Below, piece by piece: positions 1,012 to 19,439 of a stretch of 19,439 nt of DNA. Below the pieces are notes generated by a model. That model did not search any database. It saw nothing but the letters and a program-made list of their open reading frames with translations, and was not told where the DNA came from. The DNA comes from a virus (Duplodnaviria > Heunggongvirae > Uroviricota > Caudoviricetes): the IMG/VR virus record IMGVR_UViG_2925903241_000001, positions 1 to 19,439 of that record; one strand, given 5' to 3'. Numbering within the stretch: position 1 is the stretch's first letter; each line of letters opens with the position of its first letter. The position numbers and the translations under genes were made by a program.

Positions 1012-1050
1012 CTTGGTAGCAAATGGTGAAAATGTAATCTTTATATAGAG

Positions 1051-1465: not shown

Positions 1466-1480
1466 ATGAGGGTACCATAT

Positions 1481-1753: not shown

Positions 1754-1755
1754 TT

Positions 1756-1926: not shown

Positions 1927-2423
1927 CAGTGATGACGCTCAATCTCGTTGAAAAACAGCCAGCAGCTATGCGCCGGATAATTGGCAAGCATCTTGCCGTC
2001 CCTCGCTGGCAGGATACATGTGATTATTATAATCAGATGATGGAGCGCGAACGGCTAACGGTTTGCTTTCATGCACAGTTAAAACAGCGTCACGCAACGA
2101 TGCGTTTTGAAGAAATGAACGACGTCGAACGTGAACGACTGGTTTGTGCAATTGATGAATTGCGTGGCGCATTCTCAAAACGCCGTCAGGTCGGCGCAAG
2201 TGAGTATGCATATATTAGTTTTTTAACAGTCAGTCAGCGTCGTACTTTATTTATGCATGCGGGATTGACAGAAAAAGAATTCAATCAGCCGTACTGGCGA
2301 ATTAATGAAGAATCATGTTACTGGCGTGATGCTTTATTCCGTGCATTACGTGAATTATTCAGTCTGTTTGAGTATGCACCGACAATTCTGACGTCGGTAA
2401 AACCAGAGCAATATCTGCATTAA
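1917..2423 (+). CDS. P2 gpB-like early replication protein (tentative)
   Basis: 168-aa ORF at the position and size of P2 gene B (about 166 aa from memory) between cox and the small orf80-83-like genes. Based on synteny and size, not sequence recall. Confidence 0.5.
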   Translation: MEMTVMTLNLVEKQPAAMRRIIGKHLAVPRWQDTCDYYNQMMERERLTVCFHAQLKQRHATMRFEEMNDVERERLVCAIDELRGAFSKRRQVGASEYAYISFLTVSQRRTLFMHAGLTEKEFNQPYWRINEESCYWRDALFRALRELFSLFEYAPTILTSVKPEQYLH

Positions 2424-2486
2424 ATAATTAACCAGAGTTTTTAACGCACTTAATCGTGCGGGGCTTCTTTTTGCCTGGAGAAAGTC

Positions 2487-2711
2487 ATGCATACAGTTTC
2501 TGAAAATCAGTGCGGTAAATACGCATTACTGCTGCAACAGGCCAGAACCGAAGCACAGGCCGACGCTGCGACGCGCTTTTCTTCTCATCTTGACGCCATG
2601 ATTCGCCACATCACAAAGGCGGAGTTATCCCGCGTGGAGATAGTTGAGCTGCTCAGTCAGGAGTCGGAAAAATTTCACAATATCGGATTGTCTCGCGGGG
2701 AGGTGCTTTGA
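2487..2711 (+). CDS. Hypothetical early protein (P2 orf80 position)
   Basis: 74-aa ORF; its stop overlaps the next start (ATGA), indicating translational coupling within the early operon. Confidence 0.5.
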
Positions 2712-3013
2712 TGTCCTGTTCTCGTTCGGTTGTATTACTGAATAACGCCTTAAAAATCGCCGTTATGAAAAATGGTGATTTGTCTCTTATTCAACTTGGT
2801 ATTGATAAAGAGAAGCGCGAAATAACTGAATCTGTTATCGCGATTTATCAGAGTGAATTAAACCTCCTGTCTGATGTGGTCAATTTACTTGTTAAACGCG
2901 CTGTATTCCACAAGCAAATTTCCTCAGTGGATGAACTGACAAAATTAACGACAGAACTCGCCAGTTATTGCGCTGATGAATTTAAGAAGCTGAACGACAA
3001 AAGGAGCTGGTAA
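2708..3013 (+). CDS. Hypothetical early protein, AT-rich (P2 orf81 position)
   Basis: 101-aa ORF, visibly AT-richer than its neighbours. Tightly packed with the flanking genes (ATGA overlap upstream, the next start abuts its stop). Confidence 0.5.
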
Positions 3014-3237
3014 TGCCGGACAACGTGGATTTTATTCAGGAACAACAGGCTGAATTACTGGAGCGCCAGATTAACGCGGCAAGGGTAAAACATTGCGGTG
3101 TTTCTGCGCTGGTTTGCGAAGAGTGTGACGCGCCAATACCTGCTGCCCGTCGTGCGGCTTATCCGTCAGCCACGCGTTGTGTTTCCTGTCAGTCAGTCTT
3201 TGAAGCAAAAAACAAACATTACCGGAGAACGGCATGA
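3013..3237 (+). CDS. TraR/DksA-family C4 zinc-finger protein (P2 orf82-like)
   Basis: 74-aa product with CxxC...CxxC arrangement (C-E-E-C ... C-V-S-C) typical of phage TraR/DksA-like zinc fingers. Confidence 0.7.
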   Translation: MPDNVDFIQEQQAELLERQINAARVKHCGVSALVCEECDAPIPAARRAAYPSATRCVSCQSVFEAKNKHYRRTA

Positions 3238-3509
3238 GTATTCGTATTGAAATTGGCGAACGTTATGTCGTTACCAGTGACAGCTTTCAGTTTATTCTCC
3301 ACGAGAAAAAGAGAGCGGAAAGCGGTAAAAACGCCGGTCAGGAATGGCTGGCGGTGGTTGGTTATTACCCGAAATTAGGCCAGCTCGTTTCCGGCCTGAT
3401 GCATCACGATATTCTGACCGGAAGCGCAAAATCTTTTGCTGATTTAAACGCGCAGGTTGAGCAACTCAGCAAGCGTTGTTCAGAGGCTTTTGGCTCATAT
3501 GGCCGTTAA
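3234..3509 (+). CDS. Hypothetical early protein (P2 orf83 position)
   Basis: 91-aa ORF; its stop at 3507-3509 overlaps the A start codon at 3499. Confidence 0.55.
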   Translation: MSIRIEIGERYVVTSDSFQFILHEKKRAESGKNAGQEWLAVVGYYPKLGQLVSGLMHHDILTGSAKSFADLNAQVEQLSKRCSEAFGSYGR

Positions 3510-4869
3510 AGCCTCCGGGCGTTTTGTCCCTCCGTCAGCATTTACCGCAGGCACCGGTAAGGCGTTTACCGGTGCTTATGCATGGAACGCGCCACGCGAG
3601 GCTGTCGGGCGCGAAAGACCTCTTACACGTGACGAGATGCGTCAGGTGCAAGGTGTTTTATCCACGATTAACCGCCTGCCTTACTTTTTGCGCTCGCTGT
3701 TTACTTCACGCTATGACTACATCCGGCGCAATAAAAGCCCGGTGCACGGGTTTTATTTCCTCACATCTACTTTTCAGCGTCGTTTATGGCCGCGCATTGA
3801 GCGTGTGAATCAGCGCCATGAAATGAACACCGACGCGTCGTTGCTGTTTCTGGCAGAGCGTGACCACTATGCGCGCCTGCCGGGAATGAATGACAAGGAG
3901 CTGAAAAAGTTTGCCGCCCGTATCTCATCGCAGCTTTTCATGATGTATGAGGAACTCTGCGATGCATGGGTTGATGCGCATGGTGAAAAAGAATCGCTGT
4001 TTACGGATGAGGCGCAGGCTCACCTGTATGGTCATGTTGCTGGCGCTGCACGTGCTTTCAATATTTCCCCGCTCTACTGGAAAAAATACCGTAAAGGACA
4101 GATGACCACGAGGCAGGCATATTCTGCCATTGCCCGCCTGTTTAACGATGAGTGGTGGACTCATCAGCTTAAAGGCCAGCGTATGCGCTGGCATGAGGCG
4201 TTACTGATAGCTGTCGGGGAGGTCAATAAAGACCGTTCTCCTTATGCCAGTAAACACGCCATTCGTGATGTGCGTGCGCGCCGCCAGGCAAATCTGGAAT
4301 TTCTTAAATCGTGTGACCTTGAAAACAGGGAAACCGGCGAGCGCATCGACCTTATCAGTAAGGTGATGGGCAGTATTTCTAATCCTGAAATTCGCCGGAT
4401 GGAGCTGATGAACACCATTGCCGGTATTGAGCGTTACGCCGCCGCAGAGGGTGATGTGGGGATGTTTATCACGCTGACCGCGCCGTCAAAGTATCACCCG
4501 ACACGTCAGGTCGGAAAAGGCGAAAGTAAAACCGTTCAGCTTAATCACGGCTGGAACGATGAGGCATTTAATCCAAAGGATGCGCAGCGTTATCTCTGCC
4601 GTATCTGGAGCCTGATGCGCACGGCATTCAAGGATAATGATTTACAGGTCTACGGTTTGCGAGTCGTCGAGCCACACCACGACGGAACGCCGCACTGGCA
4701 TATGATGCTTTTTTGTCATCCACGCCAGCGTAACCAGATTATCGAAATCATGCGTCGCTATGCGCTCAAAGAGGATGGCGACGAAAGAGGTGCGTATTTT
4801 CATGAAAGGAGATCACTCAATAACTTCCATCGAGATCGGGTAATAACATTTGAACAGATCGCTGAATAA
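3499..4869 (+). pseudogene. A: Replication initiation endonuclease gpA (rolling-circle HUH nickase), 3' truncated by IS21-family insertion
   Basis: Likely start at MAVKASGRFVPP (3499), which is the P2 gpA N-terminus as I recall it. Phage-derived coding runs to about 4790 (roughly 431 codons, versus about 761 aa for P2 gpA). The final 25 codons of the ORF (...AYFHERRSLNNFHRDRVITFEQIAE) read into the IS terminal repeat. HUH motif PHWHMM is retained near aa 405-410. Confidence 0.85.
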
Positions 4870-4983
4870 CATCGATGGAGATCACTTTTGACTCATTTTG
4901 TTATTCAGTGATCTCCATCAATGTTATTGGAACTTCACAGGTGTGTTGATCTGTATCTTTTGCCATTCCGGTAAAGGATACCT

Positions 4984-6525
4984 ATGCCAACAGTTCCAAT
5001 TTCTATGAGAAAACTTAAAGAAATTCTTAGGCTTAAATACGGTGTTGGACTCAGCCATCGACAAATTGGTCGTAGTCTTGCAATCTCCCCTTCCGTTGTA
5101 TCCAGATATGCTAATCGGGCGGCTCAACTTGGCATAAAGCAGTGGCCCTTACCTACAGGATGGGATGATACAAAACTAAAACATGCGTTCCTTCAGACCC
5201 AGGTTAAGATGAAGAAGCACTCTCTGCCTGACTGGGCTACAGTACACCGGGAACTGCGTAATAAATGCGTGACGCTGCAGCTACTCTGGGAAGAATACTG
5301 TGAGCGTAATCCAGGCGGTTTTTACAGCTATAACCATTACTGCCGGATGTACCGTGAATGGCTCAAAACCACTTCACCATCAATGCGTCAGGTACATAAA
5401 GCTGGCGAAAAACTTTTCGTTGATTACTGTGGACCTACCGTTGGCGTTACCGACCCTGAGACCGGAGAAATAAGAACTGCTCAGGTCATCGTAGCTGTTC
5501 TCGGGGCATCAAGTTACACATGGGCAGAGGCCACCTGGTCTCAGCAGCTTGAAGACTGGGTGATGAGTCATGTTCGCTGCTTCCAGTGGTTGGGTGGCGT
5601 TCCTGAACTTGTTGTTCCGGACAATCTGAAAAGCGCCACATCCAGGGCATGTAAGTATGATCCTGACGTTAACCCTACCTACCAGCAGATGCTTGAGCAT
5701 TATAATGTCGCAGTTTTGCCTGCGCGGCCACGTAAACCGAAAGATAAAGCCAAAGCTGAAGTTGGCGTTCAGGTTGTTGAACGCTGGATCATGGCCCGAA
5801 TCAGGCATGAGATCTTCTACAGCCTTGCATCGCTTAATCAGCGCATTCGGGAGTTGCTGGAAAGACTGAATAACAAAATAATGCAGAAGTTGGGTTATTC
5901 ACGTGCAGAACTCTTCATCCAGCTTGATAAACCCGCACTGAAGCCTCTTCCTGAAGCCAGTTACAGTTACACCCTGGTGAAGAAAGTCAGAGTTCATGCC
6001 GATTACCACGTGGAAATCGACAAACATTACTACTCGGTTCCATGTTCGCTGTTAGGCCAGCAACTGGAAGCATGGATCTCCGGAGAACTGGTAAGACTCT
6101 TCAATCAGGGGCAGGAGGTTGCTGTGCACCCGCGCAAGCGTACTTATGGCTACAGTACCCGCAACGAGCACATGCCTGAAGCTCATCGACAGCATGCCAC
6201 CTGGACGCCAGAGCGTCTTCTGGAATGGGCGGGGCACATAGGCAGTGAAACTCATAGTTATGTGCTTCATATACTGAACTCTCGTCCACATCCGGAACAA
6301 AGCTATCGCTTCTGCCTTGGACTCCTGAACCTTCATAAAAAATACAGTAAAGCCAGACTTAATGCAGCATGTGCAAGAGCTCTGGAAACAAAGGTATGGC
6401 GTCTGTCAGGTATTAAATCGATCCTGGAAAAAGGTCTGGATAAACAACCTGTTCAGGATCCAAAACCAGATCTGTTATCCACGATGGAACACGAAAACGT
6501 ACGCGGCAGTGAGTATTACCACTGA
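4984..6525 (+). CDS. istA: IS21-family transposase IstA
   Basis: 513-aa ORF with N-terminal HTH-like region (LSHRQIGRSLAISPSVVSRYANRA) and a central integrase-type core, immediately followed by istB. Shine-Dalgarno AGGATA upstream. Confidence 0.9.
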   Translation: MPTVPISMRKLKEILRLKYGVGLSHRQIGRSLAISPSVVSRYANRAAQLGIKQWPLPTGWDDTKLKHAFLQTQVKMKKHSLPDWATVHRELRNKCVTLQLLWEEYCERNPGGFYSYNHYCRMYREWLKTTSPSMRQVHKAGEKLFVDYCGPTVGVTDPETGEIRTAQVIVAVLGASSYTWAEATWSQQLEDWVMSHVRCFQWLGGVPELVVPDNLKSATSRACKYDPDVNPTYQQMLEHYNVAVLPARPRKPKDKAKAEVGVQVVERWIMARIRHEIFYSLASLNQRIRELLERLNNKIMQKLGYSRAELFIQLDKPALKPLPEASYSYTLVKKVRVHADYHVEIDKHYYSVPCSLLGQQLEAWISGELVRLFNQGQEVAVHPRKRTYGYSTRNEHMPEAHRQHATWTPERLLEWAGHIGSETHSYVLHILNSRPHPEQSYRFCLGLLNLHKKYSKARLNAACARALETKVWRLSGIKSILEKGLDKQPVQDPKPDLLSTMEHENVRGSEYYH

Positions 6526-6536
6526 TACGGGATCCA

Positions 6537-7286
6537 ATGATGAATCATCTTTACGAACAACTGACCGCACTTAAACTCACCGGCTTCCGTGATGCGCTTA
6601 AAAAGCAACTTGCTCAACCGGGCACATACCAGGAGCTGGGCTTCGAAGAACGCCTGTCATTACTGACAGCAGAAGAACTAACCTGCCGTGAAAACAGGAA
6701 GGCAGAGCGTCTGATCAAACATGCACGGTTCAGACTTAATGCTGAGTTATCAAAGCTGGATTATCGTAACAATAGAGGGCTGGACAGGGCCCTCATCCGT
6801 TCACTCAGTCAGGGAAACTGGTTAACCCTGAAACAAAATATTTTACTGACCGGGGCCACCGGCAGCGGTAAAACGTTCCTGGCATGTGCACTTGGTCATA
6901 ATGCCTGCCGACAGGGATACAAGGTCTACTATTATCGCCTTAAAGCGCTGATGGAACAGTGCTATCAGGGGCATGCTGATGGAAGATACAGCAAACTTTT
7001 GACCAGGCTGAATAATAGCGATCTGCTGCTTCTGGATGACTGGGGGCTGGAACCTCTCTCATCAGAACAGCGTAGCGACCTGCTGGAAATAGTGGATCTG
7101 ATGTACCAACGAGGCTCAATCATCGTAGTGAGCCAGTTGCCGGTGGAAAACTGGTACAAAATGATCGGAGACTCCACACATGCGGATGCCATCCTAGATC
7201 GACTGGTTCATGGCAGTATCAAGATCGAACTTAAAGGAGAATCAATGCGGAAAATACAATCTCCGTTGACCGAAGGAGATCAGTGA
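6537..7286 (+). CDS. istB: IS21-family ATP-binding helper protein IstB
   Basis: 249-aa ORF with Walker A GATGSGKT and Walker B-like LLLLDDWG, 11 bp downstream of istA. Confidence 0.9.
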   Translation: MMNHLYEQLTALKLTGFRDALKKQLAQPGTYQELGFEERLSLLTAEELTCRENRKAERLIKHARFRLNAELSKLDYRNNRGLDRALIRSLSQGNWLTLKQNILLTGATGSGKTFLACALGHNACRQGYKVYYYRLKALMEQCYQGHADGRYSKLLTRLNNSDLLLLDDWGLEPLSSEQRSDLLEIVDLMYQRGSIIVVSQLPVENWYKMIGDSTHADAILDRLVHGSIKIELKGESMRKIQSPLTEGDQ

Positions 7287-7411
7287 AGGTAATTTAAAAA
7301 CGGTTCTGTGAAAGTGACACGAACCGATCTCCATCGATGTTACTCACCGATCTCCTTCACGGTAATACGCAAAGGCCACGGAACAGGCACACCAACGGGT
7401 AATACAGAGCC

Positions 7412-7437
7412 TTCTCCCAAACCAACGTTTATGAAAA
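7412..7437. other. Orphan gix/hix/pix-like invertase crossover site
   Basis: TTCTCCCAAACC-AA-CGTTTATGAAAA: a 26-bp imperfect palindrome (half-sites match 8/12 in inverse orientation) with central AA dinucleotide and AAACC..GGTTT-type core, resembling hixL and gix sites as I recall them. Lies 56 bp upstream of the invertase start, as in Gin/Hin systems. No partner site found in the window. Confidence 0.6.
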
Positions 7438-7517
7438 TGCAGAGATAACGGGCAAGTGGCATCATCTCCGGTTTTTATTCAGGGGGATGCTCATGCTTAT
7501 TGGCTATGTACGCGTGT

Positions 7518-7525
7518 CAACAAAT
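7518..7525. repeat. IS66 target-site duplication, left copy (CAACAAAT)
   Basis: 8-bp direct repeat immediately flanking the IS66-family left end; identical copy at 9981-9988. Confidence 0.9.
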
Positions 7526-7606
7526 GTAAGCGTCGTCTCAGCACCGTCTGGCAGATCCTGAAATTCCTGAGAGAATAGTGGACACCAAATATGGTGGACG
7601 CAATCC

Positions 7607-8011
7607 ATGAAATCATTAACCGCAGTGCGTAAAAAAAGCCCTAATTATCCCGTTGAGTTCAAAATCAAAATGGTTGAACTCTCGCATCGACCAGAGATCT
7701 CCGTAGCGCAACTCGCTCGTGAGCATGGGATCAACGATAATTTGCTGTTCAAGTGGCGCCAGTACTGGCGCGAAGGAAAACTACGTCCTCCTTCAACAAC
7801 AGAAAACAACGTGCCTGAGCTGCTCCCGATAACACTTGATGCCGAAGATGTTGTCCCTACAACCTCCCCCCGGTCACAACCTGTAGCTGCTGCGACACCT
7901 GAATCACTCAATATCAGCTGTGAAGTGACGTTCCGGCACGGATCACTCCGTCTGAATGGTGCCATCAGCGAAAATATCCTGAACCTGCTGATACGGGAGC
8001 TCAAACGTTGA
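7607..8011 (+). CDS. tnpA: IS66-family accessory protein TnpA (orfA)
   Basis: 134-aa ORF, first gene of the IS66 module; stop overlaps the tnpB start. Confidence 0.8.
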   Translation: MKSLTAVRKKSPNYPVEFKIKMVELSHRPEISVAQLAREHGINDNLLFKWRQYWREGKLRPPSTTENNVPELLPITLDAEDVVPTTSPRSQPVAAATPESLNISCEVTFRHGSLRLNGAISENILNLLIRELKR

Positions 8012-8355
8012 TCCCATTACCATCAGGGACAAAGATCTGGCTGGTCGCTGGCATCACCGATATGAGAAACGGCTTCAACGGCCTGGCGGCAAAGGTGCAG
8101 ACGACGCTGAAAGACGATCCGATGTCAGGTCACGTTTTTATCTTCCGTGGGCGTAATGGCAGTCAGGTAAAGCTCCTCTGGTCTACCGGCGATGGACTGT
8201 GTCTGCTGACCAAACGGCTGGAGCGCGGCCGCTTCGCCTGGCCGTCAGCCCGGGATGGCAAAGTGTTCCTCACACCGGCACAGCTGGCGATGCTGCTGGA
8301 AGGTATCGACTGGCGGCAGCCTAAAAGACTGCTTACGTCCCTGACTATGTTGTAA
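8008..8355 (+). CDS. tnpB: IS66-family accessory protein TnpB (orfB)
   Basis: 115-aa ORF MIPLPSGTKIWLVAGITDMR..., the conserved IS66 orfB-type protein by recall. Confidence 0.85.
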   Translation: MIPLPSGTKIWLVAGITDMRNGFNGLAAKVQTTLKDDPMSGHVFIFRGRNGSQVKLLWSTGDGLCLLTKRLERGRFAWPSARDGKVFLTPAQLAMLLEGIDWRQPKRLLTSLTML

Positions 8356-8403
8356 GCCTCTTTATCCTGGTCGACGCTGAATGAGCCTGGTAATATACCC
8401 GGT

Positions 8404-9939
8404 ATGAGCAGCTCACTTCCTGACGATATCAATGCACTGAAACGTCTCCTTGCCGAACAGGAGGCGCTGAACCGTGCCCTGCAGGAAAAGCTGAACGAGC
8501 GTGAACGCGAAATAGACCATCTGCAGGCACAGCTGGATAAGCTGCGCCGGATGAACTTCGGCAGCCGCTCGGAAAAAGTCTCCCGTCGTATCGCACAGAT
8601 GGAAGCTGACCTGAAGGCACTTCAGAAAGAAAGTGATACCCTTACCGGTCGGGTTGACGACCCGGCCGTGCAGCGCCCGCTGCGTCAAACCCGCACCCGC
8701 AAACCGTTCCCCGAATCACTCCCCCGCGATGAAAAACGGCTGCTGCCGGCAGCGTCATGCTGCCCGGAATGTGGAGGCTCGCTGAGCTATCTGGGTGAGG
8801 ATGCCGCCGAACAGCTGGAGCTGATGCGCAGCGCCTTCCGGGTTATCCGGACTGTACGTGAAAAGCATGCCTGTACTCAGTGCGATGCCATCGTGCAGGC
8901 CCCCGCGCCTTCACGGCCCATCGAGCGGGGTATCGCAGGACCGGGGCTGCTGGCCCGCGTGCTGATCTCAAAGTATGCAGAGCACACCCCGCTGTACCGC
9001 CAGTCTGAAATGTACGGCCGCCAGGGCGTGGAGCTGAGTCGTTCACTGCTGTCGGGCTGGGTGGATGCATGCTGCCGGCTACTGTCACCGCTGGAAGAAG
9101 CGCTTCAGGACTATGTGCTGACTGACGGTAAGCTCCATGCTGATGACACGCCTGTCCCGGTGCTGTTGCCAGGCAATAAGAAAACGAAGACCGGGCGGTT
9201 ATGGACCTACGTTCGTGACGACCGTAACGCCGGGTCAACGCTGGCGCCGGCGGTGTGGTTCGCTTACAGCCCGGACAGAAAAGGCATCCATCCGCAGACC
9301 CATCTTGCGGGGTTCAGTGGTGTACTGCAGGCGGATGCATACGCCGGGTTCAACGAGCTGTACCGGGATGGCCGGATAACGGAAGCCGCCTGTTGGGCTC
9401 ACGCCCGCCGTAAAATCCACGATGTGCACGTTCGCACCCCGTCAGCCCTGACGGAGGAAGCGCTGAAACGGATCGGCGAACTGTACGCCATCGAGGCAGA
9501 GATAAGGGGAATGACGGCGGAGCAGCGCCTTGCCGAACGTCAGTTGAAAACGAAACCGCTGCTGAAATCCCTGGAAAGCTGGCTGCGTGAAAAGATGAAA
9601 ACCCTGTCGCGACACTCAGAACTGGCGAAAGCGTTCGCATACGCCCTGAACCAGTGGCCGGCGCTGACGTACTATGCAGATGATGGCTGGGCTGAGGCGG
9701 ACAATAACATCGCTGAAAATGCGTTGCGGATGGTCAGTCTGGGCCGCAAAAACTACCTGTTCTTCGGTTCGGATCATGGAGGAGAGCGGGGAGCGCTGCT
9801 GTACAGCCTGATCGGGACGTGCAAACTGAACGGAGTGGAGCCAGAAAGCTACCTCCGCTATGTCCTTGACGTCATAGCCGACTGGCCGATAAACCGGGTC
9901 GGCGAACTGCTCCCCCTGGCGCGTAGCACTGCCGACTGA
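8404..9939 (+). CDS. tnpC: IS66-family transposase TnpC
   Basis: 511-aa ORF with N-terminal leucine-zipper/coiled-coil, a CxxC...CxxC zinc-finger region (CPECGG ... CTQCD) and a C-terminal DDE-type region, typical of IS66 transposases. Confidence 0.9.
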
Positions 9940-9980
9940 ATAACACATCCCCGTCAATACGGTTCTTGCTGCACGCTTAC

Positions 9981-9988
9981 CAACAAAT
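9981..9988. repeat. IS66 target-site duplication, right copy (CAACAAAT)
   Basis: Identical to 7518-7525; immediately follows the IS66 right terminus. Confidence 0.9.
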
Positions 9989-10608
9989 GACCAGAACACG
10001 GAATTGCAGCGTAACGCGCTGGAGTGCGCAGGATGTGAGCTGATTTTTGAGGATAAAATCAGCGGCACGAAGTCCGACAGGCCGGGGCTGAAAAAACTGC
10101 TCAGAACATTATCGGAAGGTGACACTCTGGTAGTCTGGAAGCTGGACCGGCTGGGGCGTAGTATGCGGCATCTGGTCATTCTGGTTGAGGAGCTGCGCGA
10201 ACGCGGCATTAATTTTCGCAGCCTGACGGATGCCATTGATACCAGCACGCCGATGGGGCGTTTTTTCTTTCATGTGATGGGTGCCCTGGCTGAAATGGAG
10301 CGAGAACTCATTGTCGAGCGGACACGCGCCGGACTGGAGGCGGCCAGAGCCAAAGGTCGTATTGGTGGCAGACGTCCGAAACTCACCGCGAGTGAGTGGG
10401 AGCAGGCCGGGCGGTTGCTGGCTGCAGGGGAATCACGTCAACGCGTGGCACTGATTTTTGATATTGGCCTGTCCACGCTCTATAAAAAATTCCCCGCCTC
10501 AGTGACAAAAAATAAATTGTGTCATCCCTTAGCCAACCGGGACAAATAGCCTGACATCTCCGGCACAACTAAAAATATCACTCACCCATTAACCACGGAG
10601 TTAAACGG

Positions 10609-11799
10609 ATGAGTGACTATCATCACGGCGTGCAGGTGCTGGAGATTAACGACGGCACCCGCGTCATTTCCACCGTATCCACTGCCATTGTCGGCATGGT
10701 CTGCACGGCCAGCGATGCGGATGCGGAAACCTTCCCCCTCAATAAACCGGTGCTGATTACCAATGTGCAGAGCGCAATTGCAAAGGCTGGTAAAAAAGGC
10801 ACGCTGGCGGCGTCGTTACAGGCCATCGCCGACCAGTCAAAACCGGTCACCGTTGTCGTGCGTGTGGAAGACGGCACCGGTGACGACGAGGAAACGAAAC
10901 TCGCGCAGACCGTTTCCAATATCATCGGCACCACCGACGAAAACGGTCAGTACACCGGACTGAAAGCCCTGCTGGCGGCGGAGTCGGTAACCGGTGTTAA
11001 GCCGCGCATTCTCGGTGTGCCGGGACTGGACACCAAAGAGGTTGCCGTCGCACTGGCATCAGTCTGTCAGAAGCTGCGCGCTTTCGGGTATATCAGCGCA
11101 TGGGGCTGTAAAACCATTTCCGAGGTGAAAGCCTACCGCCAGAATTTCAGCCAGCGTGAGCTGATGGTCATCTGGCCGGATTTCCTCGCATGGGATACGG
11201 TCACCAGTACCACCGCCACCGCGTATGCCACCGCCCGTGCGCTGGGTCTGCGCGCTAAAATCGACCAGGAGCAGGGCTGGCATAAAACACTGTCCAACGT
11301 TGGGGTGAACGGTGTTACCGGCATCAGCGCATCTGTATTCTGGGATTTGCAGGAGTCCGGCACCGATGCTGACCTGCTGAATGAGTCAGGCGTCACAACG
11401 CTGATTCGCCGTGACGGTTTCCGCTTCTGGGGTAACCGTACCTGCTCTGATGACCCGCTGTTCCTCTTTGAAAACTACACCCGCACCGCGCAGGTGCTGG
11501 CCGACACGATGGCTGAGGCGCACATGTGGGCGGTGGACAAGCCCATCACCGCAACGCTGATTCGCGACATCGTTGATGGCATCAATGCCAAATTCCGAGA
11601 GCTGAAAACAAACGGCTATATCGTGGATGGCACATGCTGGTTCAGCGAAGAATCCAACGATGCGGAAACCCTCAAGGCCGGAAAACTGTATATCGACTAC
11701 GACTATACACCGGTGCCTCCTCTCGAAAACCTGACCCTGCGCCAGCGTATTACCGATAAATACCTGGCAAATCTGGTCACCTCGGTTAACAGCAATTAA
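10609..11799 (+). CDS. FI: Contractile tail sheath protein gpFI
   Basis: 396-aa ORF beginning MSDYHHGVQVLEINDGTRVISTVSTAIVGMV..., matching P2 FI in length and in sequence as far as I can recall. GGAG Shine-Dalgarno upstream. Confidence 0.93.
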   Translation: MSDYHHGVQVLEINDGTRVISTVSTAIVGMVCTASDADAETFPLNKPVLITNVQSAIAKAGKKGTLAASLQAIADQSKPVTVVVRVEDGTGDDEETKLAQTVSNIIGTTDENGQYTGLKALLAAESVTGVKPRILGVPGLDTKEVAVALASVCQKLRAFGYISAWGCKTISEVKAYRQNFSQRELMVIWPDFLAWDTVTSTTATAYATARALGLRAKIDQEQGWHKTLSNVGVNGVTGISASVFWDLQESGTDADLLNESGVTTLIRRDGFRFWGNRTCSDDPLFLFENYTRTAQVLADTMAEAHMWAVDKPITATLIRDIVDGINAKFRELKTNGYIVDGTCWFSEESNDAETLKAGKLYIDYDYTPVPPLENLTLRQRITDKYLANLVTSVNSN

Positions 11800-11811
11800 G
11801 GAGCCTGACCG

Positions 11812-12330
11812 ATGGCAATGCCGCGCAAACTCAAGTTAATGAACGTCTTTCTGAACGGCTACAGCTATCAGGGCGTTGCAAAGTCCGTCACGCTGCCAAA
11901 ACTGACCCGTAAGCTCGAAAACTATCGCGGTGCGGGAATGAACGGCAGCGCACCGGTAGACCTCGGCCTTGATGACGATGCGCTGTCAATGGAGTGGTCG
12001 CTCGGGGGCTTCCCGGATTCGGTTATCTGGGAGCTTTACGCCGCAACCGGTGTGGATGCTGTGCCGATTCGTTTTGCAGGCTCTTACCAGCGTGACGATA
12101 CCGGCGAAACGGTGGCCGTCGAGGTGGTCATGCGTGGACGTCAGAAAGAAATCGACACCGGCGAGGGTAAACAGGGAGAAGACACTGAGTCGAAAATCTC
12201 CGTGGTCTGCACCTATTTCCGGCTGACGATGGACGGTAAGGAGCTGGTCGAAATCGACACCATCAACATGATTGAGAAGGTGAACGGCGTCGACCGGCTG
12301 GAGCAACACCGCCGCAATATCGGCCTGTGA
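11812..12330 (+). CDS. FII: Tail tube protein gpFII
   Basis: 172-aa ORF immediately after FI; same length as P2 FII (from memory) and in the conserved order. Confidence 0.9.
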   Translation: MAMPRKLKLMNVFLNGYSYQGVAKSVTLPKLTRKLENYRGAGMNGSAPVDLGLDDDALSMEWSLGGFPDSVIWELYAATGVDAVPIRFAGSYQRDDTGETVAVEVVMRGRQKEIDTGEGKQGEDTESKISVVCTYFRLTMDGKELVEIDTINMIEKVNGVDRLEQHRRNIGL

Positions 12331-12386
12331 TTTTCATCCGGTCAGCCTGGCTGACCGGTTAACCCCGATTCATAAGTGAGAAAACC

Positions 12387-12662
12387 ATGAACAAAGAAAA
12401 TGTGATTACCCTGGACAATCCGGTCAAACGTGGTGAGCAGGTTATCGAACAGGTCACGCTGATGAAACCCAGTGCCGGGACGCTGCGCGGTGTCAGTCTG
12501 GCAGCGGTCGCAAACTCCGAAGTCGATGCACTGATTAAGGTGTTGCCGCGCATGACGGCACCGATGCTGACCGAGCAGGAAGTCGCCGCACTGGAACTGC
12601 CTGACCTTGTGGCGCTGGCCGGTAAGGTGGTCGGTTTTTTGTCGCCGAACTCGGTGCAGTGA
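12387..12662 (+). CDS. E: Tail assembly chaperone gpE
   Basis: 91-aa ORF between FII and T, same length as P2 E; contains the slippery heptamer T-TTT-TTG near its 3' end. Confidence 0.88.
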   Translation: MNKENVITLDNPVKRGEQVIEQVTLMKPSAGTLRGVSLAAVANSEVDALIKVLPRMTAPMLTEQEVAALELPDLVALAGKVVGFLSPNSVQ

Positions 12663-12814
12663 CGTTTCCGAAAAATCTCTCGGTCGATGACCTGATGGCG
12701 GATGTGGCAGTGATATTTCACTGGCCGCCATCAGAACTGTATCCCATGAGCCTGACCGAACTCATCACATGGCGCGAAAAGGCGCTCCGGCGAAGCGGAA
12801 ACACGAATGAGTAA
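12387..12814 (+). CDS. Tail assembly chaperone gpE+E' produced by programmed -1 frameshift
   Basis: Slippery site T TTT TTG at 12635-12641 in the E frame. The -1 frame from 12641 is open to TAA at 12812-14 and encodes VAELGAVTFPKNLSVDDLMADVAVIFHWPPSELYPMSLTELITWREKALRRSGNTNE. Fusion is 85 + 57 = 142 aa, equal to the P2 E+E' size as I recall. Stop overlaps the T start. Confidence 0.8.
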
Positions 12815-15254
12815 CAATGTAAAATTACAGGTATTGCTCAGGGCTGTTGACCAGGCATCCCGTCCGTTTAAATCCATCCGCACAGCGAGCAAATCGCTGT
12901 CGGGGGATATCCGGGAAACACAAAAATCACTGCGCGAGCTGAACGGTCAGGCATCCCGTATTGAGGGATTTCGCAAGACCAGTGCACAGCTCGCCGTGAC
13001 TGGTCATGCACTTGAAAAGGCACGGCAGGAGGCCGAAGCCCTTGCCACACAGTTTAAAAACACCGAACGTCCGACACGTGCTCAGGCGAAAGTGCTGGAA
13101 TCCGCGAAGCGTGCGGCGGAGGACTTACAGGCGAAATATAACCGCCTGACGGATTCCGTTAAACGCCAGCAGCGGGAACTGGCCGCTGTGGGAATTAATA
13201 CCCGCAATCTTGCACATGATGAGCAGGGACTGAAAAACCGTATCAGTGAAACCACCGCACAGCTTAACCGTCAGCGTGATGCGCTGGCGCGTGTCAGTGC
13301 GCAACAGGCAAAACTTAACGCAGTCAAACAGCGTTATCAGGCCGGAAAGGAACTGGCCGGAAATATAGCCTCAGTGGGCGCTGCCGGTGTGGGGATTGCG
13401 GCGGCGGGAACGATGGCCGGAGTTAAGCTGCTGATGCCCGGTTATGAGTTTGAGCAGAAAAACTCAGAATTGCAGGCCGTGCTCGGAGTGGCAAAAGACT
13501 CCGCCGAAATGACCGCACTCCGCAAGCAGGCGCGCCAGCTTGGCGACAACACCGCCGCCTCGGCGGATGATGCAGCCGGTGCGCAGATTATCATTGCGAA
13601 AGCCGGCGGGGATGTTGATGCCATTCAGGCGGCAACGCCGGTCACGCTGAATATGGCGCTGGCGAACCGTCGCACGATGGAAGAAAACGCCGCCCTGTTG
13701 ATGGGGATGAAATCCGCCTTTCAGCTTTCAAACGATAAGGTCGCTCATATCGGGGATGTTCTCTCCATGACGATGAACAAAACCGCCGCCGATTTTGACG
13801 GCATGAGCGATGCGCTGACCTATGCCGCACCTGTGGCAAAAAATGCCGGTGTCAGCATTGAAGAAACCGCCGCAATGGTCGGGGCACTGCATGATGCAAA
13901 AATTACCGGTTCAATGGCGGGGACGGGAAGCCGTGCCGTGTTAAGCCGCCTGCAGGCACCGACGGGAAAAGCATGGGATGCACTGAAAGAGCTTGGTGTG
14001 AAAACCTCAGACAGCAAGGGAAACACCCGACCAGTATTTACCATTCTGAAAGAAATGCAGGCCAGTTTTGAGAAAAACCGGCTCGGTACTGCCCAGCAGG
14101 CTGAATACATGAAAACTATTTTCGGGGAGGAGGCCAGCTCAGCCGCCGCCGTGCTGATGACTGCCGCCTCAACCGGAAAGCTGGACAAACTGACCGCTGC
14201 GTTTAAAGCCTCAGACGGGAAGACCGCCGAGCTGGTAAATATCATGCAGGACAACCTCGGCGGTGACTTTAAGGAGTTTCAGTCTGCTTATGAGGCGGTG
14301 GGGACTGACCTGTTTGACCAGCAGGAAGGCGCACTGCGTAATCTCACGCAGACGGCCACAAAGTATGTGTTAAAACTCGACGGCTGGATCAAGAAAAACA
14401 AATCACTGGCGTCAACCATCGGCCTCATTGTCGGTGGCGCACTGGCGCTTACTGGCATCATCGGTGCCATTGGTCTTGTCGCCTGGCCGGTTATCACCGG
14501 CATCAATGCCATCATCGCGGCAGCAGGCGCAATGGGGGCAGTCTTCACGACGGTTGGCAGTGCTGTTATGACCGCCATCGGGGCTATTAGCTGGCCGGTT
14601 GTGGCCGTGGTGGCCGCAATTGTCGCCGGGGCGTTGCTTATCCGTAAATACTGGGAGCCTGTCAGCGCATTCTTTGGCGGTGTGGTTGAAGGGCTGAAAG
14701 TGGCATTTGCGCCGGTGGGGGAACTGTTCACGCCACTTAAGCCGGTGTTTGACTGGCTGGGTGAAAAGTTACAGGCCGCGTGGCAGTGGTTTAAAAACCT
14801 GATTGCCCCGGTCAAAGCCACTCAGGACACCCTGAACCGTTGCCGTGACACGGGGGTCATGTTCGGGCAGGCACTGGCTGACGCGCTGATGCTGCCGCTT
14901 AATGCGTTCAACAAACTGCGCAGTGGTATTGACTGGGTACTGGAAAAACTCGGTGTTATCAACAAAGAGTCAGACACACTTGACCAGACCGCCGCCAGAA
15001 CTCAAGCCGCCACGTATGGCCGCGGTGGTTATATTCCGGCGACCAGCTCTTATGCAGGTTATCAGGCTTATCAGCCGGTCACGGCACCGGCTGGCCGCTC
15101 TTATGTAGACCAGAGTAAAAACGAATATCACATCAGCCTGACGGGTGGTACTGCGCCGGGGACACAGCTCGACCGCCAGTTACAGGATGCGCTCGAAAAA
15201 TACGAGCGGGATAAACGTGCGCGCGCCCGTGCCAGCATGATGCATGACGGTTAA
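12807..15254 (+). CDS. T: Tail tape measure protein gpT
   Basis: 815-aa ORF (P2 T is 815 aa from memory) with coiled-coil N-terminal region and hydrophobic Gly/Ala-rich segments typical of tape measure proteins; directly follows E/E'. Confidence 0.93.
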   Translation: MSNNVKLQVLLRAVDQASRPFKSIRTASKSLSGDIRETQKSLRELNGQASRIEGFRKTSAQLAVTGHALEKARQEAEALATQFKNTERPTRAQAKVLESAKRAAEDLQAKYNRLTDSVKRQQRELAAVGINTRNLAHDEQGLKNRISETTAQLNRQRDALARVSAQQAKLNAVKQRYQAGKELAGNIASVGAAGVGIAAAGTMAGVKLLMPGYEFEQKNSELQAVLGVAKDSAEMTALRKQARQLGDNTAASADDAAGAQIIIAKAGGDVDAIQAATPVTLNMALANRRTMEENAALLMGMKSAFQLSNDKVAHIGDVLSMTMNKTAADFDGMSDALTYAAPVAKNAGVSIEETAAMVGALHDAKITGSMAGTGSRAVLSRLQAPTGKAWDALKELGVKTSDSKGNTRPVFTILKEMQASFEKNRLGTAQQAEYMKTIFGEEASSAAAVLMTAASTGKLDKLTAAFKASDGKTAELVNIMQDNLGGDFKEFQSAYEAVGTDLFDQQEGALRNLTQTATKYVLKLDGWIKKNKSLASTIGLIVGGALALTGIIGAIGLVAWPVITGINAIIAAAGAMGAVFTTVGSAVMTAIGAISWPVVAVVAAIVAGALLIRKYWEPVSAFFGGVVEGLKVAFAPVGELFTPLKPVFDWLGEKLQAAWQWFKNLIAPVKATQDTLNRCRDTGVMFGQALADALMLPLNAFNKLRSGIDWVLEKLGVINKESDTLDQTAARTQAATYGRGGYIPATSSYAGYQAYQPVTAPAGRSYVDQSKNEYHISLTGGTAPGTQLDRQLQDALEKYERDKRARARASMMHDG

Positions 15255-15268
15255 GGAGGTGACGAAAA

Positions 15269-15748
15269 ATGATGCTCGCGTTAGGTATGTTTGTTTTTAT
15301 GCGCCAGACGCTGCCACACCAGACCATGCAGCGTGAATCAGATTATCGCTGGCCGTCAAATTCCCGTATCGGTAAACGGGACGCTTTTCAGTTTCTCGGT
15401 GTGGGTGAGGAAAACATCACGCTTGCCGGTGTGCTTTATCCCGAACTGACCGGCGGCAAGCTGACGATGACCACGCTCAGGCTGATGGCAGAGGAGGGGC
15501 GGGCGTGGCCGTTGCTGGATGGCACCGGCATGATTTACGGCATGTATGTCATCAGCAAGGTGAGTGAAACAGGGAGTATTTTCTTTGCAGACGGCACACC
15601 CCGGAAAATTGATTTTACGCTGTCGCTCACCCGCGTTGATGAATCACTGGCCGCGCTTTATGGCGATATCGGTAAACAGGCGGAATCGCTCATCGGTAAG
15701 GCTGGCAGTATGGCGACTAAATTCACGGGTATGACGGGGGCGGGATAA
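15269..15748 (+). CDS. U: Tail protein gpU
   Basis: 159-aa ORF after T, same size and position as P2 U; GGAGG Shine-Dalgarno upstream. Confidence 0.9.
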   Translation: MMLALGMFVFMRQTLPHQTMQRESDYRWPSNSRIGKRDAFQFLGVGEENITLAGVLYPELTGGKLTMTTLRLMAEEGRAWPLLDGTGMIYGMYVISKVSETGSIFFADGTPRKIDFTLSLTRVDESLAALYGDIGKQAESLIGKAGSMATKFTGMTGAG

Positions 15749-16911
15749 TGCTGGATGCACTGACATTTGATGCAGGCAGTACGCTGACGCCGGATTACAT
15801 GCTGATGCTCGACAGCAGGGATATTACCGGCAATATCAGCGACCGTCTGATGAGCATGACCCTGACGGATAACCGGGGCTTTGAGGCTGACCAGCTTGAT
15901 ATTGAACTGAACGATGCCGACGGGCAGGTCGGACTACCGATTCGTGGCGCTGTCCTGACGGTGTATATCGGCTGGAAAGGTTTTGCCCTGGTATGCAAAG
16001 GGAAATTTACCGTTGATGAGGTTGAACACCGGGGCGCACCGGATGTGGTCACCATCCGCGCCCGGAGTGCAGATTTTCGCGGGACGCTCAATTCCCGCCG
16101 TGAAGGCTCATGGCATGACACCACGCTCGGTGCGATTGTTGAGGCGATAGCCTCCCGTAACAGGCTGGAAGCCAGTGTCGCTCCGTCACTGGCCGGAATT
16201 AAAATCCCGCACATCGACCAGTCGCAGGAGTCTGATGCGAAATTTCTGACCCGTCTTGCAGAACGCAACGGCGGTGAGGTGTCGGTAAAAATGGGAAAAC
16301 TGCTGTTTCTCAAAGCGGGGCAGGGGGTGACGGCCAGCGGTAAAAAAATCCCGCAGGTCACCATCACCCGCAGCGACGGTGACCGCCATCATTTTGCGAT
16401 TGCTGACCGTGGAGCCTACACCGGCGTAACGGCAAAGTGGTTACACACCAAAGACCCGAAGCCGCAAAAGCAGAAGGTAAAACTGAAACGCAAAAAGAAA
16501 GAGAAACACCTGCGCGCACTGGAGCACCCGAAAGCGAAACCGGTCACGCAGAAGAAAGCGCCAAAAGTACCGGAAGCGCGCGAAGGTGAATACATGGCAG
16601 GTGAGGCTGACAATGTTTTTGCCCTGACTACGGTATATGCCACGAAAGCGCAGGCCATGCGCGCCGCTCAGGCGAAGTGGGATAAACTGCAACGGGGCGT
16701 TGCGGAGTTCTCCATCAGCCTGGCTACCGGTCGGGCTGATATTTACACGGAAACACCGGTTAAAGTGTCAGGCTTTAAGCGCGTCATAGACGAGCAGGAC
16801 TGGACAATCACTAAGGTGACACATTTTCTGAATAATAGCGGCTTCACGACGTCCTTAGAGCTTGAGGTCAGGCTTTCTGATGTGGAGTACGAAACAGAAG
16901 ATGATGAGTGA
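15748..16911 (+). CDS. D: Tail protein gpD (late control D family)
   Basis: 387-aa ORF overlapping the U stop (ATAATG), same length as P2 D; includes a Lys-rich low-complexity segment (KPQKQKVKLKRKKKEK). Confidence 0.9.
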   Translation: MLDALTFDAGSTLTPDYMLMLDSRDITGNISDRLMSMTLTDNRGFEADQLDIELNDADGQVGLPIRGAVLTVYIGWKGFALVCKGKFTVDEVEHRGAPDVVTIRARSADFRGTLNSRREGSWHDTTLGAIVEAIASRNRLEASVAPSLAGIKIPHIDQSQESDAKFLTRLAERNGGEVSVKMGKLLFLKAGQGVTASGKKIPQVTITRSDGDRHHFAIADRGAYTGVTAKWLHTKDPKPQKQKVKLKRKKKEKHLRALEHPKAKPVTQKKAPKVPEAREGEYMAGEADNVFALTTVYATKAQAMRAAQAKWDKLQRGVAEFSISLATGRADIYTETPVKVSGFKRVIDEQDWTITKVTHFLNNSGFTTSLELEVRLSDVEYETEDDE

Positions 16912-16992
16912 TGTTTTTATTTTATCTGTTTGTTTTATAAGGATAAATTAACTAAAATGGCACCATCAACAAAACCGGAAGAGGTGCTCGCG

Positions 16993-17211
16993 ATGTTTCA
17001 TTGTCCTTTATGCCAGCATGCCGCACATGCGCGTACAAGTCGCTATATTACTGACACGACAAAAGAGCGTTATCACCAGTGTCAGAACGTGAATTGCAGC
17101 GCCACGTTCATCACTTATGAGTCGGTACAGCGATACATCGTGAAACCGGGAGAAGTCCACGCCGTAAGGCCGCACCCGTTGCCGTCAGGGCAGCAAATTA
17201 TGTGGATGTAA
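16993..17211 (+). CDS. ogr: Late transcription activator Ogr (zinc-finger)
   Basis: 72 aa from the internal ATG at 16993: MFHCPLCQHAAHARTSRYITDTTKERYHQCQNVNCSATFITYES..., with the CxxC-N22-CxxxxC zinc-binding pattern and the P2 Ogr length. The ORF track's 93-aa version from 16930 is a likely over-extension. Shine-Dalgarno GAAGAGG upstream of 16993. Confidence 0.9.
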   Translation: MFHCPLCQHAAHARTSRYITDTTKERYHQCQNVNCSATFITYESVQRYIVKPGEVHAVRPHPLPSGQQIMWM

Positions 17212-17220
17212 TTACAAACA

Positions 17221-17236
17221 GAAAGCCCCTCAGTCG
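17221..17236 (+). terminator. ogr rho-independent terminator, split by IS150 (left arm here; right arm and T-tract at 18683-18698)
   Basis: Removing IS150 and one TCG copy reconstitutes GAAAGCCCCTC-AGTC-GAGGGGCTTTC followed by TGTTTTGG: an 11-bp perfect stem, 4-nt loop and T-rich tail, immediately 3' of ogr. Confidence 0.75.
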
Positions 17237-17283
17237 TGTACTGCACCCATTTTGTTGGACGATGAAATGGAATAGCCCCTAAT

Positions 17284-17805
17284 ATGTCAAAGCCAAAATA
17301 CCCTTTTGAAAAGCGCCTTGAAGTCGTGAATCACTACTTCACAACTGATGATGGTTACAGGATCATCTCGGCACGTTTTGGTGTCCCCCGAACCCAGGTC
17401 AGGACATGGGTTGCCCTCTATGAAAAACATGGAGAAAAAGGTTTAATTCCCAAACCTAAAGGCGTTAGTGCTGATCCAGAGTTGCGTATTAAGGTCGTGA
17501 AAGCTGTGATCGAGCAGCACATGTCCCTTAATCAGGCTGCTGCTCACTTTATGCTTGCTGGTAGTGGTTCTGTAGCCAGGTGGCTGAAGGTCTATGAAGA
17601 GCGCGGAGAAGCTGGTTTACGCGCGCTCAAGATTGGCACCAAAAGAAACATTGCAATATCAGTTGATCCAGAAAAAGCGGCATCAGCATTGGAGCTGTCA
17701 AAAGACCGACGCATTGAGGATCTTGAAAGGCAAGTTCGATTTCTTGAAACGCGGCTTATGTATCTAAAAAAGCTGAAAGCCTTAGCTCATCCCACGAAAA
17801 AGTGA
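17284..17805 (+). CDS. insJ: IS150 transposase OrfA (InsJ)
   Basis: 173-aa ORF with N-terminal HTH; contains the A AAA AAG frameshift heptamer at 17766-17772 near its 3' end. Confidence 0.92.
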   Translation: MSKPKYPFEKRLEVVNHYFTTDDGYRIISARFGVPRTQVRTWVALYEKHGEKGLIPKPKGVSADPELRIKVVKAVIEQHMSLNQAAAHFMLAGSGSVARWLKVYEERGEAGLRALKIGTKRNIAISVDPEKAASALELSKDRRIEDLERQVRFLETRLMYLKKLKALAHPTKK

Positions 17806-18653
17806 AAGTACTCAACGAGCTAAGGCAGTTTTATCCTCTTGATGAGCTTCTCAGGGCTGCGGAGATACCGCGCAGTACGTTTTATTATCATCTAAAGGCT
17901 CTCAGCAAGCCTGACAAGTATGCGGACGTTAAAAAGCGTATTAGTGAGATTTATCACGAGAATAGAGGCCGATACGGATACCGTAGGGTAACGCTGTCTC
18001 TTCATCGAGAAGGGAAACAGATTAACCATAAAGCTGTTCAGCGCCTGATGGGAACCCTCTCACTTAAAGCAGCGATTAAGGTCAAGCGATACCGCTCTTA
18101 CAGAGGAGAGGTAGGGCAAACCGCCCCTAATGTTCTCCAAAGAGATTTCAAGGCTACGCGGCCAAACGAGAAGTGGGTTACCGATGTTACTGAATTTGCA
18201 GTCAATGGGCGCAAGCTGTATTTGTCTCCAGTAATAGATCTCTTCAACAACGAAGTTATTTCTTACAGCCTTTCGGAAAGACCAGTGATGAACATGGTTG
18301 AGAATATGCTCGATCAGGCATTCAAAAAGCTTAATCCTCACGAGCATCCTGTTCTGCACTCTGACCAGGGATGGCAGTATCGTATGAGAAGATATCAAAA
18401 TATCCTTAAAGAACATGGTATTAAACAAAGCATGTCCAGAAAAGGCAATTGTCTGGATAATGCTGTGGTGGAGTGTTTCTTTGGAACCTTAAAGTCGGAG
18501 TGTTTTTATCTTGATGAGTTCAGTAATATAAGCGAACTGAAGGATGCTGTTACGGAATATATTGAATACTACAACAGCAGAAGAATTAGCCTGAAATTAA
18601 AAGGTCTGACTCCAATTGAATATCGGAATCAGACCTATATGCCTCGTGTTTAA
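17802..18653 (+). CDS. insK: IS150 transposase OrfB (InsK), DDE catalytic domain; expressed mainly as an InsJK fusion by -1 frameshift
   Basis: 283-aa ORF in the -1 frame relative to insJ, with an IS3-family integrase-core DDE region (...WVTDVTEF...HSDQGWQY...). Confidence 0.92.
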
Positions 18654-18797
18654 CTGTCCAACTTTTTGGGGTCAGTACATCGAGGGGCTTTCTGTTTTGG
18701 GGAATATTCTTCATTAAAAGTAGTGGATCACGTTTAATAAACTATGTTTATCATATACTTAAAAGTCAATCTTTAAAGTTGGACAGGTTGGTGGAAA

Positions 18798-19439
18798 ATG
18801 GAAAAAGTTATAATTGAGCTTGATAATCGTTGGGAGTTAGCTGATTTCGCGGTCTTAACGAAAGAGTATTTGCAGCTATATGGTTTTTTTTATGGCCTAA
18901 AAGGAGGATCAAGAGGATATTCAACAATGCCTTGGGAGGGTGGGCACAGTGTGGTGAACTTTTTTAGAGGGGCTTACAGTGCGACTCCACCAGATTTACG
19001 TCCTGTAGTGAAAAAAATTCAGTATGCCTCTCCTGGCTTTATTGAATTGTCTGCTCTTATTGATATCTCTTGGCAGATTGCTGAGTTAGTTACTGCTGTT
19101 GGTGGAAGTATTCTGGCTGCCAACAAAGTTTACGATCAGGTGATGCGTACATATCGACAAAGAGAATGGGCAAAGTTGAAATCAGAGAAGCTGCGTATAC
19201 AGAATCAAATTAAAGAGATTGAACTTGTTTCTGACGCAGTTAAATCACTTGAATCTGTGATGGCACTTAGTGAAGAACAACGTAAAAACTTGGTTCAACT
19301 ATCGGGGGCAGATGAACTGGTTCAGTTAAAGATACTTTTGGCTGTTTACCGACGGTTATCTCCTCTTGTTGAGTTGCAAAACAGCGGGAAAGCTAATTTT
19401 TCTGCTGGGAAAAATAAAAATTTAAAAGCGTCCGATTAA
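18798..19439 (+). CDS. Hypothetical protein (unassigned), complete, in AT-rich DNA
   Basis: 213-aa ORF with ATG at 18798, GGTGG Shine-Dalgarno-like sequence upstream and TAA at 19437-19439. Base composition is clearly AT-richer than the phage block. C-terminal half is predicted helical/coiled-coil (KLKSEKLRIQNQIKEIELVSDAVKSLESVMALSEEQRKNL). No family recognised by eye. Confidence 0.55.
   Translation: MEKVIIELDNRWELADFAVLTKEYLQLYGFFYGLKGGSRGYSTMPWEGGHSVVNFFRGAYSATPPDLRPVVKKIQYASPGFIELSALIDISWQIAELVTAVGGSILAANKVYDQVMRTYRQREWAKLKSEKLRIQNQIKEIELVSDAVKSLESVMALSEEQRKNLVQLSGADELVQLKILLAVYRRLSPLVELQNSGKANFSAGKNKNLKASD

Follow-up and report, generated by a model that had tools for sequence, protein, structure and literature searches.

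An IS150 insertion splits the P2-type ogr terminator of an Escherichia coli prophage at a site that matches a recurrent IS150 target motif

The DNA considered here is a 19,439-nucleotide stretch of a caudoviral genome (IMG/VR record IMGVR_UViG_2925903241_000001, positions 1 to 19,439), referred to at its full length as the window. It carries a P2-like prophage in which a copy of the insertion sequence (IS) IS150 lies between the two arms of an inverted repeat, downstream of the late-gene activator gene ogr and upstream of a cargo gene. The product of ogr was recognized as an Ogr_Delta zinc finger protein (Pfam, E = 1.6e-21), and its DNA is ∼98% identical to ogr of P2. The features of the locus, including the target-site duplication (TSD) and the right end of the element (IRR), are as follows:

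16993-17211, + strand: ogr, 72 amino acids, late-gene activator of a P2-like prophage; RefSeq places OgrK at the same position
17216-17231, + strand: terminator 5' arm, AAACAGAAAGCCCCTC, a perfect 16-nt inverted repeat with 18682-18697
17234-17236, + strand: left copy of the TSD, TCG, 3 bp; a single copy in IS-free genomes
17237-18679, + strand: IS150, 1443 bp, with its IRR toward the downstream gene
17284-17805, + strand: orfA (insJ), within IS150
starting at 17766, + strand: A6G frameshift site, within IS150
17802-18653, + strand: orfB (insK), within IS150, overlapping orfA
18680-18682, + strand: right copy of the TSD, TCG, 3 bp
18682-18697, + strand: terminator 3' arm and start of the T tract, GAGGGGCTTTCTGTTT, pairing with 17216-17231
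18683-18689, + strand: match to the IS150 target motif N-GRGGCY (here A-GGGGCT), directly past the TSD on the IRR side
18798-19439, + strand: cargo gene, 213 amino acids, similar to the candidate defense protein PD-T4-10_B

A preliminary description of this DNA had named the element IS150, an identification that was borne out by its boundaries, its RefSeq annotation and its identity to 11 other copies. Positions 17237-18679 have the length and the TG.../...CA ends of an IS3-family IS150 (termini TGTACTGCACCC... and ...GGGGTCAGTACA, the terminal inverted repeats being imperfect), and the TCG found on both sides, present as one copy at empty sites, agrees with the 3-4 bp duplications of the IS3 family. 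Compared with 35 other full-length copies in public contigs, the element showed 0-5 differences and was identical to the 11 copies just mentioned. We regard it as a canonical IS150 of the IS3 family, the transposase assignment being taken from the RefSeq name ('IS3-like element IS150 family transposase, programmed frameshift'). Members of the IS3 family such as IS150 transpose by a copy-out/paste-in route, here with a 3-bp duplication. The IS-bearing allele was present in 71 genomes at 100% identity, and the event is a single, clonally inherited insertion that is ordinary in kind.

Upon removal of the IS and one TCG copy, a perfect 16-bp stem is obtained that begins 5 nt past the ogr stop codon, with a GC-rich inner 11 bp and the loop AGTC; of the three TSD bases, two are the last of the loop and the third opens the 3' arm. 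The hairpin and its 4-nt loop had been described before, with a stem of 11 bp that proved to be the inner part of a longer one. Likewise, the IS does split the hairpin as had been claimed, at the junction of the loop and the 3' arm rather than strictly inside the loop. The reconstituted 57-mer folded with a minimum free energy of -28.3 kcal/mol (z = -6.4), a value equaled by none of 200 shuffled sequences, and the corresponding hairpin from an actual IS-free genome reached -31.6 kcal/mol (z = -7.3). Both IS junctions were without significant structure upon folding (z = +0.46 and -0.71), and by this measure the insertion destroys the terminator hairpin.

The ancestry of the hairpin was assessed using a 665-bp query spanning the joined junction, from which the IS and one TCG copy had been removed. 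This search returned 85 E. coli genomes with ≥80% coverage, 12 of which were at 100% identity across the junction. In P2 (AF063097), positions 24265-24288 are annotated as 'rho-independent terminator for ogr transcript and F operon', and this feature aligns base for base with the window hairpin through the stem; this hairpin also occurs directly after ogr in many Peduovirus genomes. The preliminary description had allowed that an IS-free relative lacking the hairpin would mark the symmetry as IS-associated; since IS-free genomes and P2 carry the hairpin, this scenario fails and the proposed ancestral symmetry stands. The T-rich tail in this lineage (CTTTCTGTTTTGG) is an interrupted T tract, and a simple consensus terminator scan did not call the empty site of this lineage as a terminator. 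It is on homology and the fold that terminator function is assigned in this lineage, and on these grounds the hairpin is best read as the ancestral P2-type ogr terminator.

The site preference of IS150 was examined using the 34-nt left terminus of the element as a query against public collections. The scan yielded 21 genome, 120 metagenome and 5 viral stretches with 147 left ends and 64 distinct left flanks. Both flanks were available for 44 distinct sites, and the 24 with a clean duplication (∼15 diverged hok/sok-type loci and ∼9 unrelated loci) were used for motif counts. These sites share the motif [3-bp TSD]-N-(G/A)-R-G-G-C-Y in a fixed register, usually beside the IRR. Counting from the end of the TSD, any base occurs at +1, followed by G at +2 (19/24), R at +3 (23/24), G at +4 (22/24), G at +5 (23/24), C at +6 (23/24) and Y at +7 (22/24); GRGGCY occurs in this register at a background frequency of 0.00085. 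The core motif was kept at the unrelated loci, with a strict match in seven of them (e.g. [TAT]AGGGGCT, [ACC]CGGGGCT, [GGA]TGAGGCT and [GTT]TGGGGCT), and the window site, [TCG]AGGGGCT, conforms to it. The motif lay at the right end of the element in 22 of 23 natural motif sites, the exception (contig L116) being the same hok-like site with IS150 inverted. Conserved bases at a fixed register are thus found across unrelated loci.

Insertions that arose in the laboratory point in the same direction. Five IS150 insertion sites from the long-term evolution experiment (LTEE) were taken in REL606 coordinates from PMC11101190, and three of them have N-GAGGCT with the TSD starting exactly at the reported coordinate:

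metL, 4110237, two independent hits: N-GAGGCT in register; within the gene, no hairpin
capsule-export gene, 3015771: N-GAGGCT in register; within the gene, no hairpin
rhsA, 3697154: N-GAGGCT in register; within the gene, no hairpin
narZ: a weak CGGGC only, on the wrong side
cirA, 2196654: no motif adjoining the duplication

The cirA site (stretch L155 of our collection) recurs in a metagenome contig (L025); at this site, GGGGCTTT is found 17-21 nt off on the side of the IS left end. Seven further events could be mapped from a mutation-accumulation study (PMC5289635), most central-chromosome sites being unmappable as REL4536 is rearranged relative to REL606. Six of the seven events fell at motif sites, one of the six being 2 nt out of register (the strand after each coordinate is the orientation as reported):

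mokC 16972, - strand: [ACC]CGAGGCC, motif fit
mokC 16992, + strand: TCG followed by GGGGCT, 2 nt out of register
imp/djlA 61532, - strand: [TAT]CAGGGCT, motif fit, the zero offset verified by a single-nucleotide polymorphism (SNP) in lptD
rrlH 230817, - strand: no motif
rhaS 4043793 (- strand) and 4043794 (+ strand): [CAG]TGAGGCC, motif fit for both events
yihS 4015454, + strand: [AAA]CAGGGCT on the minus strand, motif fit

Given the inferred offset, the rhaS and yihS events fall on exactly the base that the motif predicts. At ldr, the two sites reported are separated by 615 bp, and only one pair of GGGGGCT sites in the repeats has this spacing; in REL606 (L156, 44170-45900), each 535-bp ldr repeat holds the two strict sites [AAC]GGGGGCT and [TGC]GGGGGCT. 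These alignments indicate that the motif preference extends to unselected laboratory insertions.

Several observations weigh against a motif-based account. The motif is not obligatory and represents a preference rather than a rule, as illustrated by the narZ, cirA and rrlH insertions and by the register shift at mokC 16992. The hok/sok-like sites are homologous to one another and are therefore not independent evidence on flanking sequence. For rhaS and yihS, a glpF SNP served to infer the offset, which the authors did not give, and the orientation rule held for only about four of six mutation-accumulation events (yihS and one rhaS event being counted as inverted). Natural sites have also passed a selection filter, and hairpins could be enriched among them because insertions in neutral intergenic DNA survive. 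Finally, in contig L027 and nine more contigs with R1-type hok/sok loci, the long Sok terminator hairpin is interrupted by IS150 at its TTTC loop and no GRGGCY adjoins the duplication, which favors a structural component.

Such a component is further suggested by the frequency of the motif. REL606 DNA holds ∼990 strict motif sites per Mb, or ∼4,600 per genome, ∼2% of which have a complementary arm upstream, yet the two Sok-terminator arms at trg/mokB took 10 of ∼50 IS150 events in the mutation-accumulation lines (PMC5289635). The 6-mer alone therefore cannot explain the hottest sites, and an inverted second copy of the motif, a hairpin, or a longer consensus such as GGGGCTTTCT, which is common to the ogr arm and the Sok terminators, probably contributes to hotness. 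Among natural insertions, 24 of 62 distinct left flanks were hok/sok-like; in the ∼15 hok/sok-type loci with a clean duplication, IS150 lies immediately 5' of CGAGGC, the Shine-Dalgarno sequence of mok, which forms an arm of the Sok-RNA terminator hairpin. The hok/sok-like flanks span several enterobacterial genera with differing duplications, which points to many independent hits on one position of the Sok terminator/mok ribosome-binding region. Outside the hok group, GCCYC was found within 35 nt in 10 of 38 flanks vs 5% of background (p = 1.3e-5). In the window without its IS there are 34 strict motif sites, with a hairpin context only at the two terminator arms, one of which received the IS.

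Taken together, we think it likely that IS150 was drawn mainly to the GGGGCT arm motif of the P2-type terminator, with probable help from the palindrome. A single insertion, in an ancestor from which one E. coli clone descends, would have placed IS150 in the intrinsic terminator that closes both ogr and the late F operon; the P2-like prophage concerned is located between cpxP/cpxQ and fieF. The descending terminator arm, G-A-GGGGCT, matches the fixed-register target consensus on the IRR side, and because the terminator is palindromic the motif is present on both strands, with a complementary GCCCC just upstream. Since the 3' arm opens with the motif and 1 nt separates motif and TSD, the insertion comes to lie at the loop. 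Likeness to the Sok-RNA terminator hairpins, the hottest known IS150 targets, probably raised the probability of insertion. We infer that the transposase would recognize the motif and that the hairpin would enhance insertion. The earlier proposal that IS150 targeted the hairpin loop is retained insofar as the choice of site was non-random; what recurs is the fixed-register sequence motif, which is used at hairpin-free sites in genes as well.

The strongest alternative is that IS150 recognizes the hairpin, a cruciform or the loop itself, with the motif a by-product of GC-rich stems. Several of the results above fit this structural explanation: the hottest sites are pairs of Sok-terminator arms (mokC 16972 and 16992; mokB 1272453 and 1272468-70), the R1-type loci carry the IS in a loop with no adjoining motif, GCCYC is enriched upstream of non-hok sites, a hairpin is present at two of nine non-hok motif sites vs a base rate of 2% (p = 0.013), and in the window a hairpin-context site was taken among 34 motif sites. 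We nevertheless consider it unlikely, since the motif occurs in register without a complementary upstream arm at metL, rhsA, rhaS, yihS, the capsule-export gene and the imp/djlA spacer. The insertion point also lies a variable ∼7 to ∼21 nt past the upstream GCCCC, whereas its spacing to the downstream motif is constant at 1 nt, and at hok/sok loci the IS lies at the base of a long stem, outside the loop. A far less probable explanation is that IS150 inserts nearly at random and that this copy persisted because it does the host no harm in a terminator flanked by a silent prophage gene and a cargo gene. Intergenic insertions are generally tolerated, and the 71 identical alleles represent a single event with clonal inheritance, both of which agree with chance and survivorship; selection, however, is unable to yield a single-nucleotide register to a 6-mer across unrelated loci, the same hot spots are shared by mutation-accumulation lines under minimal selection (PMC5289635), and insertions in the silent late genes would have done as little harm, but the IS is found at one of two hairpin-context motif sites in 18 kb. 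That the symmetry was brought in by the IS, as part of a larger mobile unit or through rearrangement, has next to no probability, being refuted by the intact hairpin of IS-free genomes (100% over 665 bp), by the annotated P2 terminator and its Peduovirus counterparts, and by the entirely different flanks of other IS150 copies, with nothing found in its favor.

Pairing between the IS and its target was also considered. GCCTCG occurs in IS150 at 18642-18647, 33-38 nt from the right tip, where it complements the target consensus CGAGGC and could pair with 18681-18688 ahead of the T-rich tail; the z-score was not significant and the pairing is probably due to chance. This candidate was rejected, as a given hexamer is expected by chance in 1.4 kb and the junction fold was not significant.

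No description of the IS150 target motif was found in the searchable literature, beyond whose reach lie Schwartz 1988, Haas and Rak 2002, and the Mahillon and Chandler review. A passing mention of 'specific insertion preferences' for IS911 and IS150 is made without detail in PMC10379815. Reports of IS150 hot spots give no motif (PMC5289635, PMC5419217, PMC11101190 and bioRxiv 10.1101/527788), and the first two offer no explanation by a hairpin either. Supplementary Data 1 of PMC7881107 lists IS copy numbers only, with no positions, and papers on ISSau2, of the IS150 group, report no target specificity.

A quantitative form of the target rule can be put forward more tentatively. In this form, which we find plausible while leaning slightly toward doubt, the IS150 consensus is strong and largely orientation-specific, with a several hundred-fold boost where the motif forms an arm of a terminator-like inverted repeat (AAAGCCCC...GRGGCT). 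If true, one rule would cover the hok/sok and ldr hot spots of the LTEE and mutation-accumulation lines, the ∼40% hok/sok-like share of distinct IS150 sites in public contigs, and hits on phage and gene terminators such as that of ogr. A simple rule of this kind would predict hot spots (terminators, type I toxin-antitoxin loci) in evolution experiments, production strains and clinical clones, and would help to tell mutational bias from selection in parallel IS150 insertions; it would be of moderate interest if not already published.

With regard to downstream transcription, no terminator-like site was found on the + strand between ogr and the next gene by scanning. Because the junctions are unstructured and no such site precedes the next gene, ogr and late F-operon transcripts should enter IS150, and those leaving its right end would reach the open reading frame (ORF) at 18798-19439, which begins 118 nt downstream of the IS. 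Published evidence on an outward IS150 promoter conflicts: a promoter at the IS150 3' end was invoked in the LTEE, with modest transcription gains at 12 of 55 downstream regions (PMC11101190), whereas the terminal 150 bp of IS150 were elsewhere chosen for having no detectable promoter activity (PMC12095673). Scanning for sigma-70 promoters gave no convincing outward candidate at the right end of the IS, and nothing above shuffle expectation for the cargo gene; the action of an outward IS promoter on the downstream gene is uncertain.

The cargo ORF matched PADLOC PD-T4-10_B (E = 1.3e-34), with no Pfam or PHROG match for the ORF and no PD-T4-10_A partner adjoining it. Its GC content is 40% vs 52% for the prophage. 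Homology to K-12 restarts 83 nt beyond its stop codon, preceded by two ATGTGGAC repeats that resemble P2 Int arm sites; because these arm-like repeats and then K-12 homology follow it, the ORF can be placed as prophage cargo between the terminator and attR. The prophage is flanked by cpxP/cpxQ and fieF. Integration was into the 3' end of cpxP and the small RNA cpxQ (stretch L001, 14540-14700, past the window end, vs K-12 stretch L157, 1031-1088), and since K-12 homology resumes inside cpxQ, the phage end rebuilds the terminator region of the small RNA. A second IS, the IS66-family ISEc22, lies at ∼7600-9950 in the tail-fiber/invertase region of the same prophage, which is probably defective as a result. 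Its parts are:

7607-8011: tnpA
tnpB
8404-9943: frameshifted transposase

The loss, in one clone, of a terminator that would insulate the late operon and ogr from a defense-like cargo gene is a modest result, and the IS-bearing and IS-free strains form a natural, testable pair.

Compared with known systems, the split terminator is identical to the ogr/F-operon terminator of P2 in stem and loop (GAAAGCCCCTC AGTC GAGGGGCTTTC) and in its position after ogr. The two differ in the T tract (CTTTTTTG in P2 vs CTTTCTGTTTT in this prophage), inside which homology with P2 stops, and in what follows, namely Int P-arm sites within 5 nt in P2 and a cargo gene in this prophage. The hot spots at chromosomal type I toxin-antitoxin loci in evolution and mutation-accumulation experiments with E. 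coli B (trg/mokB, mokC/nhaA, hokE and ldr; PMC5289635 and PMC5419217) involve the same element with the same 3-bp TSD. In both settings the IS right end abuts the motif, which is carried by a G-rich arm CGGGGCTTT(T)CT or CGAGGCC in the Sok terminators and by A-GGGGCTTTCTG at ogr. The targets differ in that the ogr site is the terminator of a phage protein gene with a 4-nt loop, whereas the Sok sites are antisense-RNA terminators with a long stem.

In K-12, hokA is interrupted by IS150, as Pedersen and Gerdes reportedly described in 1999. Target choice of this kind has parallels elsewhere in the IS3 family. IS911 reportedly inserts beside sequences like its own ends (work attributed to Loot et al. 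2002 and Rousseau et al. 2007, both cited in PMC3299598) and offers an IS3-family precedent for target choice directed by the transposase or OrfA protein. The IS150 right end holds TGGGGTCA, which resembles the target consensus TGRGGCYA over only 7-8 nt; with no TGTACTG in the target flanks, targets resembling the IS ends were rejected as an explanation and this weak likeness is left as speculation. Further parallels are found in IS1397 and ISKpn1, which are placed in the IS150 subgroup. Like IS150, they are IS3-family elements with a DDE transposase and a 3-4 bp TSD, whose insertions separate the two arms of a GC-rich palindrome. Both insert into the loops of repetitive extragenic palindromic (REP) sequences, or palindromic units, each being reportedly specific for one repeat family (PMC1525189). 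IS150 is not confined to loops of a single repeat family, as the metL, rhsA, rhaS and yihS coding sites are without a palindrome. Unlike IS1397 and ISKpn1, it also enters non-palindromic sites in genes, and the feature conserved among its targets is a 6-mer at a fixed register.

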